Source: Microcoleus sp.
GTDB taxonomy: Bacteria > Cyanobacteriota > Cyanobacteriia > Cyanobacteriales > Microcoleaceae
Reading direction: 5' to 3'
NCBI GenBank assembly: GCA_042408215.1
Contig: JAYFMW010000005.1
Location: 160,001 to 224,000, forward strand
DNA length: 64,000 nt
Positions 3,458-14,448 of the stretch are shown one piece after another. The position numbers were made by a program, and so were the translations under genes. The notes below the pieces were generated by a model. It saw only the letters and a program-made list of their open reading frames with translations, searched no databases and was not told where the DNA came from. How positions within the stretch are numbered: position 1 is the first letter of the stretch; every line of letters starts with the position of its first letter.

Positions 3458-3773
3458 GTGTCAACTTAAGCCTGAAAGCCATGAGAAATCTCGCTTTCAC
3501 CCCAGTCTAGATCCCCCTAAATCCCCCTTAATAAGGGGGACGAAAGAGAAGATTCCTGTCCCCCCCTTAAGAAGGGGGACGAAAGAGAAGATTCCTGTCC
3601 CCCCCCTTAAGAAGGGAGTAGAGTGTGAGTAGGGGTTGACGAAAGAGACTCTTTCTCCCCCCTTGTGAAGGGGGGCCGGGGGGGATCTTAGAGTTTGAAA
3701 ACACGCCCTAGGGGGGATCTAAGTTTAATAGTCAAACAGCAGTCTCTGACTGAGTTTAACGTTAAGTTGACAC
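3458..3773. mobile_element. MITE-like element with TIR GTGTCAACTTAA...TTAAGTTGACAC
   Basis: 12-bp terminal inverted repeats, internal CCCCCTTAAGAAGGGGG hairpins and an internal ~39-bp duplication. Same family as the 18.6-19.9 kb array, opposite orientation. Confidence 0.8.
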
Positions 3774-5095: not shown

Positions 5096-5123
5096 TGCAT
5101 AAAACTGGCTGACTCCTGCGACA
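5096..5123 (+). promoter_or_regulatory. Putative alternative-sigma promoter, copy 1 (TGCATAA-N16-CGACA)
   Basis: Ends 30 nt before ATG 5154; motif shared by four units of this locus. Confidence 0.65.
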
Positions 5124-5153
5124 TCTCTTCAAAAGCGCAGTGGAGAAGCCCCT

Positions 5154-5876
5154 ATGATGATTAATTATACAACTGAATCGGAGAAAGCTTGGTACAAGTC
5201 TCCTGCAATTGTAGCTGCTGTAGGTGTCAGCGCGATCGCCCTTGGAGCATTCATTTACCCAGAACTCGCCAGTCAACCCATTGTACACTACCGCGCTGAC
5301 GATAATTCGCTGTCAGCAGATCGCTACACCTTACAGCGACAATTGCACTGTCAAATCAGCAGCCAACATTATAAACCGGGAGATACCGCTGTCAGCATTC
5401 CGTTTGCCGATCGCGCCGTCGTCACTAAAACCATCTCCATTGCTAACAGTTTAACCCTGATGGGGGAATGTCAACACAACGGGCGAGCCATCACCAACAA
5501 ACAACCCGGAACCTCTCTAACAGCCTTGTTAGAACGCAGTCAATCTGCCATTCAACAACAACATCAAACCAACAACAAAAATCCAGGCATCCTCACCATT
5601 GTAGCAAACGACTTTGAGCCGCGTCAAGGGGATCATGGTATAGATTTTAGTCGAGTCAAAACCCTCGTTGACGACATCGAAAAACAGGGAGTAGTTATCT
5701 CATTTATCGTGCCACAAGGGCAATTATACGAAGACTTGACTAACCAGTTGAGCGGCAAAGAGAGTGTCTGCGTTTTAGATGAAAGCAAAGACGAAGATGC
5801 AGTAAGGCGATCGATGAATCCCTGCATTGATGCAGCCTTCACCCAAGCCAGAAAAATGACACCTAAATCAAATTAA
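5154..5876 (+). CDS. Membrane-anchored vWA-like protein
   Basis: N-terminal TM helix; DNSLS fits the DxSxS MIDAS motif, with later PGTS (T) and IVAND (D). Confidence 0.6.
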   Translation: MMINYTTESEKAWYKSPAIVAAVGVSAIALGAFIYPELASQPIVHYRADDNSLSADRYTLQRQLHCQISSQHYKPGDTAVSIPFADRAVVTKTISIANSLTLMGECQHNGRAITNKQPGTSLTALLERSQSAIQQQHQTNNKNPGILTIVANDFEPRQGDHGIDFSRVKTLVDDIEKQGVVISFIVPQGQLYEDLTNQLSGKESVCVLDESKDEDAVRRSMNPCIDAAFTQARKMTPKSN

Positions 5877-5980
5877 TTGGGTTGGTAATAAGGACTTTAT
5901 TCCTTCTTGTGAGGACTAAAGTCCTGACTACGAACCTAGGATTTCCTGTATCTACAACAACAGTAAAAGCAGTTCAGTTA

Positions 5981-6018
5981 CATCCGTTAAATCCGTTACA
6001 AAATCCGCTGCCGAACTT
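5981..6018. repeat. Dispersed ~40-bp repeat CATCCGTTAAATCCGTTAC..AATCCG.TGCCGAACTT
   Basis: Other copies at ~62049-62086 and, reverse complemented, ~40339-40376. Confidence 0.75.
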
Positions 6019-6032
6019 TTTTCCCCGAATTC

Positions 6033-6059
6033 TGCATAAACCTTCAACCCGTAGCGACA
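6033..6059 (+). promoter_or_regulatory. Putative alternative-sigma promoter, copy 2 (TGCATAA-N15-CGACA)
   Basis: Ends 26 nt before GTG 6086. Confidence 0.65.
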
Positions 6060-6085
6060 CTATCTTATAAAGCAAAAAAATCAAG

Positions 6086-7375
6086 GTGACACCAATGAAT
6101 TCTATCACCCATCATAACCACAATTCTGCCGCCAGCATCGTAGCATGGCAATACCTGCACCAAGAATTGACAGCCCTACTCCCCGAACAAATCAAATCCC
6201 AAATGAGTCAGCGGGAAAAACGATACGCAGAAGGAGAAAAAGCCAAAACACGGATTAACGACTTAACCCCTTTAGCGAGGCGCAACCCCAACCCGGAAAC
6301 CAAGAAAATAGTCAATATTTCGGTAGGGTTAATCAGCGCGATTACCTTCAGTGCGGGAGCGCGAATATTGACTTCCGGCTTTGGAAGTATGAGCATTCCA
6401 GCGAGTTTGTTCATCGGGGGCGCAGCGGGGGTAGTCGCGGATAAAAAAGTGATGAAAGTCATGGAGCATTCTCGCAAGAAAAGCAGCACCACGCAAGCAT
6501 TGCAAGATATCCAAAAACAAAAACAGGCTCATCCCGCTAAAAATCCATTTGGCGAACTTTATTACGAATCTCAAACCGCCTTAGTGCTACAAGTCGAAGG
6601 TCAATATTTGAATAAACTACCCTTTAGCGATGTCGGGTTGGCGCTGGGATTGAGCGGCACCGAATATGCGATGTCTCTGGGGATTGTGATCGGGTTGGGA
6701 TTACCGGGGGGAATTCTTTTAAATGCGATCGCAGCCAGCCTACCCGTAGTAATGTTATGGGGAGCAGCATCACTGCAAAACGACGCCTTTGAAATGCCCG
6801 GACACGCCCGTGCCCTAATCGGACAATACGAAAGCAGCCTCCCCCAAGAAATCACCGAATTGGAGGCAAATCAGATTGCCGGAATCGACGAAGAAGTTGC
6901 TCTGAAACAGCGAGAACTCGCCTATGAGCAAGCCTTAAACCTGCGTCGTGAAAAATTTGTCAGCGAAGGCGATACCAGCGGGCGATTGAAGAATTGGGAC
7001 ATGGTAGAAGCTGACTTTCAAATCGGGTGGTACGAGAAAGAAAAGCATCAAATCGAAAAAGACCAGGACGAAAAACGAGAACAGCGTTACTTTAAGTTTA
7101 AAGCCGATGTTGCTCAAATTGCCGAACAGCATCAACCCCCCGCCGGCACTTACTCACCGGAACAAATGGCCCAGTTAAAAAATGAATGGGTGGAAGTCCA
7201 AGAACAAAAATTGAAGGAAATTCTCGCCCATGACATTCAGTGGTTGAATCACAAATACGGCAACAAAATCAAGCATTACGAGGAGGAAATCACCACAGCG
7301 CGACAGCGTTACGCAGAAGCCGAATCTCGGTGGCGGCAAGAACGACATTCTAATGCAATGAAGGATACTGTTTGA
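6086..7375 (+). CDS. Hypothetical membrane protein with Gly-rich hydrophobic hairpins and a C-terminal coiled coil
   Basis: Two Gly/Ala-rich hydrophobic helix pairs followed by an E/K/Q-rich helical C-terminus; 429 aa intact. Confidence 0.75.
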   Translation: MTPMNSITHHNHNSAASIVAWQYLHQELTALLPEQIKSQMSQREKRYAEGEKAKTRINDLTPLARRNPNPETKKIVNISVGLISAITFSAGARILTSGFGSMSIPASLFIGGAAGVVADKKVMKVMEHSRKKSSTTQALQDIQKQKQAHPAKNPFGELYYESQTALVLQVEGQYLNKLPFSDVGLALGLSGTEYAMSLGIVIGLGLPGGILLNAIAASLPVVMLWGAASLQNDAFEMPGHARALIGQYESSLPQEITELEANQIAGIDEEVALKQRELAYEQALNLRREKFVSEGDTSGRLKNWDMVEADFQIGWYEKEKHQIEKDQDEKREQRYFKFKADVAQIAEQHQPPAGTYSPEQMAQLKNEWVEVQEQKLKEILAHDIQWLNHKYGNKIKHYEEEITTARQRYAEAESRWRQERHSNAMKDTV

Positions 7376-7377
7376 GA

Positions 7378-7600
7378 CTGAAACCCTCTGTATCTCTCGT
7401 TTGTATCGCAGTCTCGATCCCCCTAAATCCCCCTTAAGAAGGGGGACTTTGATCCGAATTCTTGATCTCCCCCGTGTTTTCTCAACAGACTTTGAACTGC
7501 TCTTGTCCCCCCCTTCTTAAGGGGGGCTAGGGGGGATCTGGCCTTAATCGCCAAACAGCAGTCTCTGATTCGGTTTGACCTTAAATTGATCCCAATGGGC
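7378..7600. mobile_element. Degenerate MITE copy, same family as 3458-3773
   Basis: GATCCCCCTAAATCCCCCTTAAGAAGGGGGACTTT core, AAACAGCAGTCTCTGA, and a degenerate right TIR TTAAATTGATCCCAATGGGC. Confidence 0.65.
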
Positions 7601-7653
7601 GCAGTACGATGTCCTCGCATCAGGGGCACCGCAAAAAAAACTTTCCCTAAATC

Positions 7654-7680
7654 TGCATAAACCCCCCAACCCCTGCGACA
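7654..7680 (+). promoter_or_regulatory. Putative alternative-sigma promoter, copy 3 (TGCATAA-N15-CGACA)
   Basis: Ends 29 nt before ATG 7710, the likely start of the sigma-like gene. Confidence 0.65.
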
Positions 7681-7709
7681 TCAAAGTATCAACACCCAAA
7701 AACTAGACT

Positions 7710-8646
7710 ATGACGAGACATGATACCCCCGTCGAACCCTTACCAGGCTTGGTTCCTGTAGCCACAAACTTCAACTTGTGGCTGCACCTTCGGAACTCAA
7801 GCCGATTTCCTTGACTTTGTTCTTCCTGGCACGTTACAGCGCTATTTTCTCTGGGATAATTGAACTATCCCGACGTGATAGCAACGTGCCTGTGAACACC
7901 GACGAACGGAGTTACGCGAACTTCTACAACTCTTGAAAGACTCCCAAGCACGGGGAGTCAGAAACACAGAAAGATTCAAAAGATCAATTGTCTAACTCGA
8001 TTCCCGACTCTTGCCCGGAAGTCGCAAATATCGCGACGACCTGAGTCCTACAGATCTGATTTTGATGGACGCACTCCGAATGACGGCCTATGGCGGTTTT
8101 TCAAAACGCTGCCGATATTTTTCGGGACAATTGACCTCGATAATCCACTCGCTGATGATGTCTTGCGAACCAGAGCTGGTTAAGCGGTTGTAATAAACTC
8201 AATATCGCGACTGATTGCAAGATATGCGACGCAGGCACAGAAACATCAGATTTGTCCATTTGGACGAACCTACAAGCGAAGAAAATGCCACAACCAAATC
8301 AGATATTACACCCGATCCGCGACCAGAACCGCCCATCGATTATGTAGAACAGCAAGAGCGTTTTCTGCAACTAAAAGCTTATTTAGAGCAAGACCCGGAA
8401 CAAAGATTGTCTAACTGCTGTACGCGGAAATACCCGATTTGTAACTGTTGGGAACTGATTAAGCGAAGGGTATTAACATCCCCGCCCCAGACCTTTAAAC
8501 AAATCAAAAAAGACCTGGATATTCCCCTCGATAATATTACCAGACTTTGGTACAATAAGTGTGTCCCTCTGTTGGCAGAGATAGCTCAACAAATTGGCTA
8601 CGAAATCGAACCCAGAAGATTACAACAAAAAGAGGATGAGGAATAA
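7710..8646 (+). CDS. Divergent sigma-70-like factor; 5' half broken by frameshifts and stops as given
   Basis: The 8215-8646 part (YLEQDPEQRL..C..RKYP.CNC..L..R.....PP...QI..DL.IP...I..LW..KC.PLL) resembles cyanobacterial sigma-like proteins found next to DUF1822, with a region-4-like HTH. The start coordinate is inferred. Confidence 0.55.
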
Positions 8647-8648
8647 TC

Positions 8649-9490
8649 ATGACTAACACTACTGAACATTGTATCACAATTCGTTTTCAGAAACAAGACT
8701 GCGAGTTGGCGGAAAAATTCGCCGCTTCTCAACCGAATGCTGAGAAAAATCAACAAGTTTATCGCAATACTCTGGCTGTTTTAGCGGTGAACACCTTTGT
8801 GCAAGAATTACGTTATGAAACTGACTTGGATGCTGGCGAAAGTTGGCATCCGGTGCTCAGAATGTTTCATAATGTTGCTGATTTAGTCTTACCGGGAATT
8901 GGCAAGATTGAATGCTGTCCGGTTCTACTTGGAGAAACGGCGATTTCTCTGCCGGAAGTGCGCGAAAATCGCATTGCTTATATCGCAGTTCAGTTTGCGG
9001 AACCTTTCGATAAAGTCAAACTTTTGGGCTTTATTCCGGCTGTGGAAATTGTGGAGGAAACTGAAGCGATTTCTCTCACTAATCTCCAACCAATTGAGGA
9101 ATTGTTGGATTATTTGGATCGAATTGAGTTGGGAATTCCGGTGGCGCAAGTTCTACTTGAAGAAGTGCTATCGGATTTGGCAGAAGATGACCCCGTACAA
9201 GCACAAGCACGAGTTCGGGAGATTTTCCAAAACCAATCTATTGCTGAAATTGTGGCAATTTTGAATCAAGTTTATCGCAGCAACGAGAAATCTGACTGGG
9301 GATATGAAGGGGGGAAGGCTTTAGCGGGAATTGGTGCTAGCAGTGGAGGTTTGGGAGGTATAAATCGATGTTTATCAATTCATCAATCTTCACCGGGGTG
9401 GTTGAGGAGGGTGTGAAAGTGGAACTGAATATAATTGCTGAAGATTTGTTGGAAAAGTTGGCTGAGATTTGGGGAGATGGTGATGAATAA
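8649..9490 (+). CDS. DUF1822 family protein (frameshift near the 3' end)
   Basis: QQVYRNTLAVLAV, ADLVLPGIGKIECCPV, RIAYIAVQ and LLGF motifs. Another frame continues ...ELNIIAEDLLEKLAEIWGDGDE to TAA at 9490. Confidence 0.8.
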
Positions 9491-9499
9491 TCTGGGGAG

Positions 9500-9760
9500 T
9501 CGGTGGGTAGCGAGAAACCGGGTTTCTACGAGTTTTTTAGTTGAGTGACGAGAAATCTCCCAAGAAACCCGGTTTCTGGGGAGTCGATGGGTAGCGAGAA
9601 ACCGGGTTTCTACGAGTTTTTTGGTTGAGTGACGAGAAATCTCCCAAGAAACCCGGTTTCTGAGACAAGGTGGGTAGCGAGAAACCGGGTTTCTACGAGT
9701 TTTTTGGTTGAGTGACGAGAAATCTCCCAAGAAACCCGGTTTCTGAGAGTCGGTGGGTAA
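9500..9760. repeat. Three tandem copies of an ~85-bp AGAAACCGGGTTTCT...AGAAACCCGGTTTCT palindromic REP-like unit
   Basis: Directly visible; single relatives at ~1786-1855, 14472-14535, 23795-23860 and 46572-46606. Confidence 0.85.
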
Positions 9761-9786
9761 TTGCTGAAAACATTTTTCGGGAATTT

Positions 9787-9814
9787 TGCATAATTTTCCC
9801 CCAAATTGCCGATA
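9787..9814 (+). promoter_or_regulatory. Putative alternative-sigma promoter, copy 4 (TGCATAA-N16-CGATA)
   Basis: Ends 33 nt before ATG 9848 of the TPR-CHAT gene. Confidence 0.55.
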
Positions 9815-9847: not shown

Positions 9848-12800
9848 ATGGACGAACAACGCCTCGCCGCCTATCTCCAACTGATTCAAGCCCTGCTTGA
9901 GTGCCCTAGCGGTGAAGAAGATGATATTCTCGAACGCCCATCGAGAGTTAGTTGATGCGGATTTTGTGCAAGTCATGGAAGCAGTGGCGGCGAATATGGC
10001 AGAAAAGGGCGAATCCAATGCAGGTTGGTTGCAGAATCTGGCGGCACAATTGGCAAATTATGTCCGCAGTACAGCAACTCCTGAAGAGTATTTATCTTTC
10101 TTGATGGAGGTGTTGCAAGCAACGCATGAAAGTCGACGGAAATCCTCAAGTTGTCTATCCTATTTTACAACAAAACTTCGACAAATTGGATTTGAATTTT
10201 GCTCAAATATTGCAAGCTTGGGCCACATCCACATTCACAGAAGTTACCTCAGAACAAGCTGCATCATCGCAGCAGTTATTGGCAATTTTGGCAACTTAAT
10301 TCAGCAGTTTCCCCTGGGGCGGCGGGCATGGAATTTAGAAATAGGTATTGCTTGTTATACCGCAGCCTTAAAAGTCTATACCCGCGAGAATTATCCCGAA
10401 TATTGGGCAACGACTCAAAATTATTTGGGGGCTGCTTATAGTAACAGAATAGAAGGAGTCAGGGCGGCGAATATTGAAGAGGCGATCGCCTGTTATACCG
10501 CAGCCTTAGAAGTCTATACCCGCGAGAATTATCCCGAAGATTGGGCTATGACTCAAAATAATTTGGGGATTGCCTATAGTGACAGAATAGAGGGAGTCAG
10601 GGCGGCGAATATTGAACAGGCGATCGCCTGTTATCGGGAAGCTTTAAAAGTCCGTACCCCTGAGAATTATCCCGAAAAATGGGCTATGACTCAAAATAAT
10701 TTGGGGATGCCTATAGTGACAGAATAGAGGGAGTCAGGGCGGCGAATATTGAAGAGGCAATTTCCTGTTATCGGGAAGCTTTAAAAGTCCGTACCCCTGA
10801 GAATTATCCCGAAGATTGGGCTATGACTCAAAATAATTTGGGGGCTGCCTATAGTGACAGAATAGAGGGACTCAGGGCGGCGAATATAGAACTTGCGATC
10901 GCCTGTTATCGGGAAGCTTTAAAAGTCCGTACCCCTGAGAATTATCCCGAATATTGGGCTATGACTCAAAATAATTTGGGGAATGCCTATAGTAACAGAA
11001 TAGAGGGAGTCAGGGCGGCGAATATTGAACAGGCGATCGCCTGTTATCGGGAAGCTTTAATAGTCCGTACCCCTGAGAATTATCCCGAAAAATGGGCAGG
11101 GACTCAAAATAATTTGGGGGCTGCCTATAGTGACAGAATAGAGGGACTCAGGGCGGCGAATATAGAACTTGCGATCGCCTGTTATCGGGAAGCTTTAAAA
11201 GTCCGTACCCCTGAGAATTATCCCGAAGATTGGGCAGGGACTCAAAATAATTTGGGGGCTGCCTATAGAGACAGAATAGAGGGAGTCAGGGCGGCGAATA
11301 TAGAACTTGCGATCGCCTGTTATCGGGAAGCTTTAAAAGTCCGTACCCCTGAGAATTATCCCGAACAATGGGCAGATGACTCAAAATAATTTGGGGAATG
11401 CCTATAGAAACAGAATAGAGGGAGTCAGGGCGGCGAATATAGAACTTGCGATCGCCTGTTATCGGGAAGCCTTAATAGTCCGTACCCCTGAAAATTATCC
11501 CGAACAATGGGCTATGACTCAAAATGGTTTGGGGAATGCCTATGGTAACAGAATAGAGGGAGTCAGGGCGGCGAATATTGAAGAGGCAATTTCCTGTTAT
11601 CGGGAAGCTTTAAAAGTCTATACCCGCAAGGATTATCCCGAAGATTGGGCTATGACTCAAAATAATTTGGGGGCTGCCTATAGTGACAGAATAGAGGGAG
11701 TCAGGGCGGTGAATATTGAAGAGGCAATTTCCTGTTATCGGGAAGCTTTAATAGTCTATACCCGCAAGGATTATCCCGAAGATTGGGCAATGACTCAAAA
11801 TAATTTGGGGACTGCCTATAGTAACAGAATAGAGGGAGTCAGGGCGGCGAATATAGAACTTGCGATCGCCTGTTATCGGGAAGCTTTAATAGTCTATACC
11901 CCCGAAAATTATCCCGAAAATTGGGCTATGACTCAAAATAATTTGGGGGTTGCCTATAGAGACAGAATAGAGGGAGTCAGGGCGGCGAATATAGAACTTG
12001 CGATCGCCTGTTATCGGGAAGCTTTAATAGTCTATACCCCCGAGAATTATCCCGAACAATGGGCTATGACTCAAAATAATTTGGGGGTTGCCTATAGAGA
12101 CAGAATAGAGGGAGTCAGGGCGGCGAATATAGAACTTGCGATCGCCTGTTATCGGGAAGCTTTAATAGTCCGTACCCCCGAGAATTATCCCGAACATTGG
12201 GCAACGACTCAAAATAATTTGGGGATTGCCTATAAAAACAGAATAGAGGGAGTCAGGGCCGAGAATATAGAAGAGGCAATTTCCTGTTACCGCTTAGCCT
12301 TAGAAATTCGCACTCCTACTGCTTTCCCTTTAGACTGCTTGCAATCAGGTAGAAACCTCGGCAATACCGCTTTCACTGCTGGCTTCTGGGACATCGCCCT
12401 GGAAGGATTCGAGAAAGCAATTCAAGCAGTAGAAAAAAGCAGAAGTTGGGCAACTTCCGACGATATCCGCCAACAGATGATAGCAGAATCCATCGGTGTT
12501 TACGAAAAGGCAATTCAAGCTGCTGTCAACAACAACCAACTGGAAAAAGCCATAGAATATTGCGACAGAACCCGTGCTCAGCGGTTAGTGGATTTAATGC
12601 ACAGCAATGACTTGTATGCTAGCGGCGAAATTCCGCCCGCAGTGCAAAAGTATTTGGATGAATTTGAAGCGAAGCAGCAGGAAATTGACGCAGAAGTCGA
12701 ACAACTCCGCAATCCATCGGAGGGGAATAAGGGATTAGCTGGTGTGGGGAGTTCGTCGCGGAGTCGGGCGGATACTTCTGCTTACACGAAGAAGATTCAA

Positions 12801-14448
12801 GAATTGGAAGGGGAGAAACAGCAAATCTGGGAAAACATCCGCAGTTTAGATCCAGTTTTAGCGGGACAAGTTCAAGTTGTGCCGATGCAGTTTGCGGCGA
12901 TGCAGCAGTTGATTGATAATTCCCAGACGGCGATTCTCTGTTTTTATACGACGGATGATGACACTCATGTTTTTGTGATTTACAAGGATAAAGCGCCGCA
13001 GATTCACACTTGTCAGGGTGAGGGTTGGGGAAGTTTTCAGAAGTGGATTCGCTGAGAGTTGGTTGTCGCCTTATTTGGAGGATAGGAAAGGTTGGCAGCA
13101 GGGGATGGGTGAGTTTTTGTCTCAGTTGTCGCGGCGGTTGAAGGTTGATGAGTTGATTGGTAATTGTTTGGATGGGATTGAGGAATTGATTGTGATTCCG
13201 CATTTGTATTTGCATCAGATTCCGTTGGCGGCTTTGCCGGTTAATACCCTCGCAACCGAGGAGGGCGGGCACGGGGGCACCGCCCCTACAAATCCAGGGC
13301 TTGAGAGGGGGCTTGGTGTAGAACCCCCCCAACCCCCCCTTGGTGAGGGGGGGCTTAAGACTGTAGAACCCCACCTTGGTAAGGGGGGGCTTAAGAGTGA
13401 GACCCCCCCCCTTGGTGGGGGGGAAGAACCCCCCCAACCCCCCCTTGCTAAGGGGGGGCTTAAGAGTGAGATTTCTGCCCTGACGAAGGAACAAAAACTT
13501 GTTCTTTCTCCCCCCCTTAGCAAGGGGGGGCCGGGGGGGGTTCTTAGCGATTATTTCCTAATTCGTTACATTCCCAGTTGCCGAATTTTGGAGTATTGCA
13601 GTCAACGTCCCACCATTGAATCGCCGAAATACGGGATTGTGGAAAATGCCACGGATGATTTGTACTTCACTCCTTTTGAGTGCGAACAAATTGCCGAAAT
13701 TGTGACGGTAACTGAACGCTTAAAAGGAAGTCAAGAAGCAACAGTCGCCGCCTATCGAAACCTGACCCAAAATGTGAATGTCATCCACTCCAGTCACCAC
13801 GCTGTCTCGCGTTTGGACAATCCTTTAGAATCGCGGTTGTTTTTAGGAGACGGGAGTATCACGTTAGGGGAATTGATGACTCCTGGTTGGCGCTTACCGC
13901 AGTTATCGGATGTGTTTATGTCTTGCTGCGAAACTAATTTAGGAGATACGGAAATTACGGATAATCTGCTGAGTTTGGGTACGGGGTTTTTGTGTGCTGG
14001 AGCTCGCAGTGTGGTGAGCACTTTGTGGGAGGTGGATGATTTTGCTACTTCGTTGTTTTCGATTTTTTACTATCAGTATCGTCGGGAAGGTTTGAGTCGT
14101 CCAGAGGCTTTGTGGCGGGCACAGGTGCGGTTGCGGACGATTTCGGGCGCGGAGTTGGAAGGGCTTTATAAATCGCAAATTGATGCGCTGCTTCCGAAAG
14201 TTATTGGGGATTTAAAATCTCAATTGGCTGTGGTTCAAAAGGACAAAAAGGAGTTGAAAAAGCATCCAAATCGCTCGATCCAGGGAACGGATGAGTTTAA
14301 GAAGTTTAAGGAAATAGTGAAGCAGGAGAATAAGATTCAGGATCGAAAGAAAGGATATGAAAGTTGGAAAACAAATCTTTACACTATGTCAAATCCTTTT
14401 GATGATTTGATTTATTGGTCGGGGTTTATTTGTCAGGGTTTGCATTGA
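9848..14448 (+). CDS. Large TPR-repeat CHAT (caspase/HetF-like) protease, split by about 6 single-base indels
   Basis: Start MDEQRLAAYLQLIQALLECPSGEE; 46-aa TPR units; CHAT motifs IIVIPH-like (LIVIPHLYLHQIP), IHSSHH (His), FMSCCET (Cys), GARSVVSTLWEVDD and YWSGF. Frame changes near 9931, 10134, 10265, 10707, 11375 and 13050. Confidence 0.85.
10340..12324 (+). repeat. About 14 near-identical 138-bp tandem coding repeats (46-aa TPR units)
   Basis: TATCCCGAA recurs about every 138 bp from ~10392 to ~12186. Confidence 0.9.

Follow-up and report, generated by a model that had tools for sequence, protein, structure and literature searches.

What reads a two-part motif, TGCATAA followed at a near-constant distance by CGAYA, that recurs along a single locus of the mat-forming cyanobacterium Microcoleus? 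The locus lies in a 64,000-nucleotide (nt) stretch of DNA that was analysed as a whole and is called the window here (G000:C5:160001-224000, in the 7.36-Mb genome G000), and it encodes orfA, orfB, a sigma-like protein, a DUF1822 protein and a caspase-like TPR-CHAT protease. To judge from their pattern in this and other genomes, the four copies of the motif are very probably promoters of an alternative sigma factor, with TGCATAA as the −35 box and CGAY as the −10 box. As the reader of these candidate promoters we favour the sigma encoded at the locus itself (7710–8646), a reading to which we assign a probability of roughly 0.55.

A search for TGCATAA-N14-17-CGAYA returns exactly four matches in the window, all on the plus strand and all where the initial annotation had placed them: copy 1 (TGCATAA-N16-CGACA, 5096–5123) before orfA, copy 2 (TGCATAA-N15-CGACA, 6033–6059) before orfB, copy 3 (TGCATAA-N15-CGACA, 7654–7680) before the sigma-like gene and copy 4 (TGCATAA-N16-CGATA, 9787–9814) before the TPR-CHAT gene, with differing spacers of 16, 15, 15 and 16 nt, respectively. 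Chance is ruled out as the origin of the four, as only 0.07 matches are expected in the window (standard deviation 0.26) and none of 100 shuffles reached four. The genome-wide scan gave the few, clustered matches that had been predicted, the exact N15/16 form occurring six times in G000 with four of the six inside the locus. A dispersed repeat, which the initial annotation had named as a finding that would speak against the motif, is ruled out by this count and by a longer similarity among the copies that is limited to copies 2 and 3 (74% over 39 nt).

The distances to the start codons are the claimed 30, 26, 29 and 33 nt (to ATG 5154, GTG 6086, ATG 7710 and ATG 9848, respectively), and the starts of orfA, the sigma-like gene and the TPR-CHAT gene stand as annotated. 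For orfB, however, ATG 6095, at 35 nt from copy 2, is the likelier start because relatives that show copy 2 have ATG at this site and lack the GTG. The common geometry is thus a spacer of 15–16 nt placed 29–35 nt ahead of the start. The copies head four transcription units (orfA; orfB; the sigma-like gene with DUF1822; the TPR-CHAT gene) rather than each gene as first described, as the DUF1822 gene (8649) begins 2 nt past the sigma stop and has no copy of its own. The A/T tracts said to precede the copies do exist, but they are interrupted by runs of C/G. In the 100 nt ahead of each of the four starts there is no sigma70-type consensus.

The nearest named records to the locus are from Microcoleus and Tychonema, and conservation was counted over 26 named related (Microcoleus-type) loci with the sigma gene. 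An exact copy 3 is found in 25 of the 26, the remaining locus having one mismatch; copy 1 is exact in 18 of the 24 loci covering its site, copy 4 in 14 of the 19 covering the TPR-CHAT start, and copy 2, the least conserved, in 5 of the 13 with orfB. Eleven distinct spacers are found among the 18 distinct copy-3 sites, the invariance of the boxes in this set being by construction because they formed part of the search pattern. The locus itself is patchy (25 of 61 genus genomes), and M. vaginatus-type loci are missing orfA and orfB, with copies 1 and 3 lying ∼145 nt apart before the sigma gene. Many M. vaginatus-type relatives also have a fifth copy, absent from the window, on the opposite (minus) strand ∼1.5–2 kb upstream of csbD (TGCATAA-N16/17-CGAT; L037:1319, L043:1615 and L047:3972, among others).

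In strains without the cassette, copy 1 survives directly after csbD and the orfA start codon is gone where read. Copies left at such empty sites, the likeness of copies 2 and 3 and a within-genus spacer conservation that is also fairly high would suit leftovers of local duplication, recombination ends of a mobile cassette or operators of a non-sigma regulator. We consider it unlikely that the copies are any of these instead of promoters, since the same two boxes recur in many families with unrelated spacers, lie on the coding strand in the neighbourhood of sigma/DUF1822/CHAT genes and usually precede a start codon by some tens of bases, and since the motif has neither a palindromic nor a direct-repeat structure.

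A divergent sigma-like protein and its predicted partner DUF1822

The sigma-like gene (7710–8646, plus strand) is frameshifted in the window, and its stretches 7902–8219 and 8220–8646 correspond to two different alleles (B-like and A, respectively). Intact homologues have 293–338 residues. The AlphaFold model of one of these (mean predicted local distance difference test score, pLDDT, 72; first 61 residues unreliable) matches region 2 of extracytoplasmic function (ECF) sigma factors at residues 66–181 (SigW; Z 7.8, root-mean-square deviation 3.4, 92 aligned) and ECF region 4 at residues 200–296 (SigL; Z 7.0, root-mean-square deviation 3.3, 80 aligned). Each of the top 29 rows of this structural search is a sigma factor or a transcription complex containing one, and Foldseek likewise returned mostly sigma factors (best E 0.055). 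At the sequence level, TIGR02937 was the best model (E 0.0052, in 3 of 15 family members) with no Pfam sigma match, and a search of solved structures gave nothing below E 1.3. From the model, the protein is predicted to be a divergent ECF-type sigma with a fold like regions 2 and 4. A profile search gathered 391 clusters at 50% identity, and this short sigma family has members in 91 of 121 genomes of the order, which makes the sigma/DUF1822/CHAT module widespread. Four other members occur in G000 (C28:16341-17099, C17:768038-768742, C5:500970-501845 and C17:319301-320077). The HetZ models NF037963, NF037964 and NF037965 gave no match to either allele, and they do detect the genome's own HetZ_rel_2 elsewhere.

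Alleles A and B, found in 4 and 22 of the 26 related loci, respectively, stand behind one candidate promoter and a common first ∼60 codons. DUF1822 changes with the sigma allele over its first ∼70 residues and is otherwise common to both (16 loci yielding the complete protein; the script mis-called 2 of 18). Since L039 (allele A) and L061 (allele B) have one distinct DUF1822 tail in common, both alleles are present in at least two lineages. The gene of the window is allele A from 8220 onwards (409 of 427 bases, no gap) and allele B over 7902–8197 (269 of 299 columns, with 23 gap openings). In contigs from three of the four environmental DNA runs, 7902 is joined to 8220 by 309 other letters; one run also has a second contig that tracks the middle stretch but lacks the extra bases of the window. 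These contigs are best explained by a mixed-strain consensus, and the ‘broken’ gene is probably an assembly chimera that merges both alleles from two strains, a real decayed recombinant being a possible alternative. Small indels against relatives are also found in the DUF1822 and TPR-CHAT genes. The repair of the sigma gene that the initial annotation called for is not needed, as intact alleles exist in relatives.

The DUF1822 gene (8649–9416, plus strand; Pfam PF08852, E 1.4e-40) is shifted near 9397–9401 relative to relatives, whose proteins are ∼30 residues longer. Modelling predicts its product to be an anti-sigma, the adjacent partner of the sigma: for the sigma and DUF1822(1–170) pair from L036, an interaction score of 0.86 was obtained versus 0.00 for the best of three controls, with runs agreeing in at least 67% of contacts and a partner pLDDT of at least 85. 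This score mark is attained by 116 of 157 solved pairs and by 2 of 215 mismatched ones, a calibration that is only rough for the alignments used here. The predicted interface comprises sigma residues 156–171, with D168 and R171 among them, together with portions of the region-4 half. Of the 32 DUF1822 interface residues, 23 fall in the first 74, which is the part of the protein that varies with the sigma allele.

The reader of the motif

The link that points to the local sigma is one between the CGAY box and a subclade of its family marked by a DxxR signature. The 124 family members were sorted on a tree, and ∼15 kb was fetched around 20 members each of this subclade, its sister clade and clade I. 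Motif copies were present in 10, 1 and 6 of the 20 loci, respectively (18, 1 and 8 copies versus 1, 1 and 2 in reversed-sequence controls). L315–L317, which had been picked after motif or homologue matches were seen, were dropped from the subclade, leaving 17 loci with 11 copies in 7 of them; an upstream copy had been recorded earlier for some of these 17, although the tree decided membership. CGAY-type copies, all outside the present locus, occur in 6 of the 17 subclade loci, in none of the 20 sister-clade loci and in 1 of the 20 clade-I loci (subclade versus sister clade, Fisher P = 0.005, for kin that are not independent), and the clade-I copies are mostly TGAYA. A de novo search of the 17 loci placed CATAA..CGAT among the top three pairs. 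Near the sister-clade and clade-I sigmas the same kind of search gave no convincing alternative motif, CAGTT..AAAAC being present in 6–7 of the 20 sister loci. The DxxR signature, read by eye from the alignment of the tree members with no script, is present in 22 of 27 subclade, none of 36 sister-clade and 4 of 61 clade-I members, as well as in alleles A and B. Among the four clade-I exceptions, two, namely L137 and the G000 paralogue at C5:500970, have a CGAT copy in their cluster. In an ECF sigma described in PMC3397946, the D of DxxR reads the G of the CG in a CGTC −10 box.

The paralogous cluster of G000 (L021; G000:C5:494000-505000) has a copy at C5:494036 and encodes an NYN protein, a TPR-CHAT protein, an interrupted orfA homologue, a frameshifted sigma-like gene, DUF1822 and an N-terminal-CHAT protein. 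Clustered copies are also held by sigma/DUF1822/CHAT islands of other families (L062–L065), with five around the sigma of L064 and five within 17 kb in G120. A congener of G120, G125, lacks matches to both the short and the long sigma family and has no copies.

Several results weigh against the local sigma as the reader. Both fold Z scores are <8, under the confidence level of the tool, Foldseek gave no match at E ≤ 0.001 for the model and the protein scores below the cut-off of every Pfam and NCBIfam sigma model. Alleles A and B share ∼26–39% identity in their best tblastn segments, or ∼35–40% as a summary figure, and their region-4.2 recognition helices differ along the whole length, but both stand behind the same −35 box. 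Ten of the 17 subclade loci are without an exact copy, TGCATAA-N16-20-GAYA is found within 900 nt upstream of only 8 of 110 family members, L062 and L065 have CGATA copies without DxxR at the column, and L120 of the sister clade has a copy. Because copy 1 outlives its gene in cassette-free strains and copy 2 is absent from 8 of 13 relatives, conservation alone is no proof of use. Finally, the motif has a sibling. TGCATAA-N18-GATA occurs at 16 sites in G000 versus 1–4 at neighbouring spacers; in each of the 61 genus genomes TGCATAA-N17/18-GATA gives 7–25 matches versus 0–6 in controls, an excess in 61 of 61 genomes when the locus is in only 25; and TGCATAA..GATA lies upstream of a second, long DUF1822-linked sigma family in 6 of 30 loci. 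The long and short families do not align (hhalign probability 0.5). The motif is therefore not private to one sigma family, contrary to the initial annotation, because the same −35 box precedes unrelated sigmas and the sibling is present in locus-free strains; with the −35 box shared by both families and the genus-wide sibling, it appears to belong to DUF1822-sigma systems as a class.

The N18-GATA sites of G000 (C5:255324, C6:228902, C8:22752, C17:295478 and 295657, C28:162218 and 179517 and C30:579404-579788 among them) are often in tandem, ∼178 nt apart. Among ten proteins scanned downstream of this set and of a one-mismatch variant are three with RTX repeats (of which one also has a CAP domain and another a peptidase), a lipase, PsbU, two giant proteins with DUF4394 or DUF4114 and three that fall into no clear family. 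The set is probably the regulon of another DUF1822-linked sigma. Such a sigma, encoded elsewhere in the genome, could also read the four sites of the locus in a cascade or by cross-talk, so that the local sigma would be a downstream output with targets of its own. This would account for one promoter serving two very different alleles and for a −35 box common to short and long families, and it agrees with the number of N18-GATA sites before RTX-repeat, lipase, peptidase and giant proteins and, once, before psbU, with a sibling excess independent of the locus and with the four other family members in the genome. Against it, the short-spacer CGAY class is confined to the locus in G000 (four of the six exact matches) and tracks the sigma subclade elsewhere, and, at the search threshold applied, no single paralogue among the matches listed is common to all motif-rich genus genomes. 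We take the cascade seriously but hold it to be doubtful.

The long family, a further candidate reader, has no member found in G000. The conserved clade-I sigma is not supported as master reader, as G255, G227, G240 and G254 carry short-family sigmas (the first three being the genomes placed in clade I) with only 0–1 copies, and G174, G222 and G236 have 13–28 copies with no clade-I match. In the latter three (e.g. G222:C1:4013742; L225, L268) the copies are TGCATAA-N17/18-GATA, mostly with ACTGATA or CCTGATA, the only DUF1822-linked sigma is the long one (∼460–480 residues), and a copy lies directly before it in G174 and G222. Genomes whose sole family is the long one reach 26–28 copies with an ACTGATA −10 box. 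A weight matrix trained on the related copies of the locus turned up no clear additional members, with six matches scoring at least 24 versus 0–3 at wrong spacers; the two extra matches lie inside long open reading frames (ORFs), and a wider set emerged only with the GATA form. Of two further genome-wide spacer peaks, that at 22 is largely the N18 sites counted again, and that at 13 is one repeat in 12 of 15 matches (TGCATAA-N13-GATA, e.g. C1:110250, C12:84385 and C26:114804), a dispersed element that is probably part of a mobile element. Fifteen of the 16 other regions fetched around motif matches are without a sigma or DUF1822 tag, and L080 has only a long-family sigma.

A conserved host sigma (SigF, SigG, another ECF or HetZ-related protein 2) might instead read the motif, with the island merely using it. 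The sibling is present in all 61 genus genomes, including G004 and G269, which have no short-family match (both have DUF1822 genes), one of its sites precedes psbU, and the genome encodes several ECFs and HetZ_rel_2. In the order survey (121 genomes), however, the 16 genomes with neither sigma family show little excess (49 matches versus 33 in controls; 41 versus 33 without G100, which has DUF1822), whereas the 105 with one of the families have 724 versus 239 (Mann–Whitney P = 0.013, overstated by kinship). The high counts seen in G137 and in small genomes rich in AT came from scattered sites or repeats. Across the order, the motif excess thus needs one of the two DUF1822-linked sigma families. 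In addition, HetZ reads TCCGGA (PMC13342950), and the sequences predicted for SigG and SigI in PMC8155712 are GGAAC/GTC and CATCC/CGTA, respectively. We therefore judge a host sigma very unlikely. Taken together, geometry, conservation, fold, predicted partner and the CGAY–DxxR link lend good support to the ECF-type promoter of the initial annotation, whereas its autoregulation is the leading reading only.

With the local sigma as reader, a circuit may be proposed in which the sigma activates the TPR-CHAT protease gene, orfA, orfB and the operon that it forms with DUF1822. DUF1822 would keep the sigma inactive by masking the DxxR-bearing helix of region 2.4, as the modelled interface suggests. 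A signal sensed by the TPR repeats would activate the CHAT protease, which may then cut DUF1822, freeing the sigma and closing a positive loop, by analogy with Csx29/Csx30/CASP-sigma; HetZ/PatU3 offers a second analogy. We infer promoter activity, the identity of the reader and proteolysis alike from these patterns and parallels.

More tentatively, DUF1822-linked sigmas across cyanobacteria might share the TGCATAA −35 box and differ in a −10 box set by clade, namely CGAY for the DxxR subclade and TGATA, GGATA or AGATA elsewhere. At the present locus, the sigma core and the first ∼70 anti-sigma residues would be exchanged as one cassette between fixed flanks, the regulon would be kept and both alleles would be retained in two lineages. 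If true, a wholesale swap of sigma and anti-sigma fits the pair being a target of phage or competitor inhibitors. Alleles <40% identical behind one promoter imply either a shared specificity through different helices, which would be unusual for sigmas, or a sigma cascade, and either outcome would be informative. The predicted promoter, the predicted anti-sigma interface and the two natural alleles make the system directly testable in the Escherichia coli system built for HetZ. The value of the window alone is lowered because its sigma gene is probably mis-assembled.

Other genes and elements of the locus

orfA (5154–5876, plus strand) encodes 240 residues with an N-terminal hydrophobic anchor and has no Pfam or NCBIfam match; by language-model features it is vWA-like, its Atlas neighbours being vWA clusters at 0.93–0.94, which is a lead only. 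orfB (6095–7375, plus strand; the longest ORF opens at GTG 6086) encodes ∼426 residues, hydrophobic segments being followed by a charged, helical-looking tail, with no family in Pfam, NCBIfam, PADLOC or Atlas. PADLOC also gave nothing for the sigma, DUF1822 or orfA. The TPR-CHAT gene (9848–14448, plus strand; TPR, and CHAT at E 9.4e-29) is broken by frameshifts into ORFs 9897–10727, 10823–11389, 11376–13055 and 13018–14448, and it shows single-base indels against L038. Its last piece (13018–14448) has His- and Cys-bearing CHAT motifs as well as an in-frame low-complexity insertion built from a GC-rich repeat. Elements of this GC-rich inverted repeat type, very common in the genus, lie at 3515–3720 and again at 7416–7538, in the interval from orfB to copy 3. 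Three tandem 84-nt repeats with internal inverted arms (9491–9741), which separate DUF1822 from copy 4, are of a type that forms a dispersed family in the genus, and a 25-bp hairpin between orfA and copy 2 (5880–5936) is a possible terminator or small repeat.

Comparison with known systems

The closest mechanistic parallel drawn above is type III-E CASP (Strecker et al. 2022, PMC10028731), which likewise combines a TPR-CHAT protease (Csx29), an anti-sigma (Csx30) and an ECF-like sigma, CASP-sigma having three binding motifs inside its own locus. Distant members of the present family match the CASP-sigma model weakly (E ∼1e-4, far below cut-off). In contrast to CASP, the CHAT piece (C-terminal only) scores 57.9 bits versus a Csx29 cut-off of 300, DUF1822 is not annotated as Csx30 and no RNA-guided trigger is known here; no Cas protein was found among nine nearby ORFs scanned, CRISPR arrays not being searched for. 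Sigma-HetZ/PatU3 of Anabaena (PMC13342950) is similar in that it is a divergent ECF-type sigma of a cyanobacterium which standard models overlook, is co-transcribed with its anti-sigma and has a promoter of two boxes 16–17 bp apart, but it is of another family, its −35 box is TCCGGA (DIF1) rather than TGCATAA, and it has a core developmental role rather than a place in a patchy island. In DdvS/DdvA of Myxococcus xanthus (PMC11506125), an ECF sigma also controls a defence island with TPR-CHAT in the circuit, and the anti-sigma binds regions 2 and 4. There, however, TPR-CHAT lies within a membrane anti-sigma and has an incomplete active site, whereas the protease and the predicted anti-sigma are separate genes here.

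In the literature on cyanobacterial ECF promoters, DUF1822, EACC2 and CHAT/CHASE2, no description of a TGCATAA/CGAY promoter was found among the matches listed, and TGCATAA is absent from five text supplements of PMC8155712. The main text of the ECF reclassification paper (PMC7826278), in the part available, has no DUF1822, CHAT or caspase, and no experimental test of the sigma/DUF1822/CHAT module was found among the matches listed for DUF1822, EACC2 and CHAT/CHASE2. The gene module itself is already in print, so the ‘uncharacterised sigma family’ of the initial annotation does not hold: Kaur, Iyer, Burroughs and Aravind (2021, PMC8195603) catalogued an ECF sigma and DUF1822 beside EACC2-caspase genes. 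In their neighbourhoods, as here, a sigma-like gene and DUF1822 are next to each other and a caspase-like (CHAT) protease is close by, and a transcriptional output through the sigma is proposed there. The protease differs, being a TPR-CHAT protein with a C-terminal CHAT here instead of an N-terminal EACC2 followed by a caspase and a variable C-terminus. The section of that paper on the module calls DUF1822 a TPR protein and gives no promoter, targets, anti-sigma role or allelic cassettes. Beside a gene module that had thus been catalogued, the new elements here are the exchange of sigma and anti-sigma as a cassette and the −10 variants that go with sigma clade.

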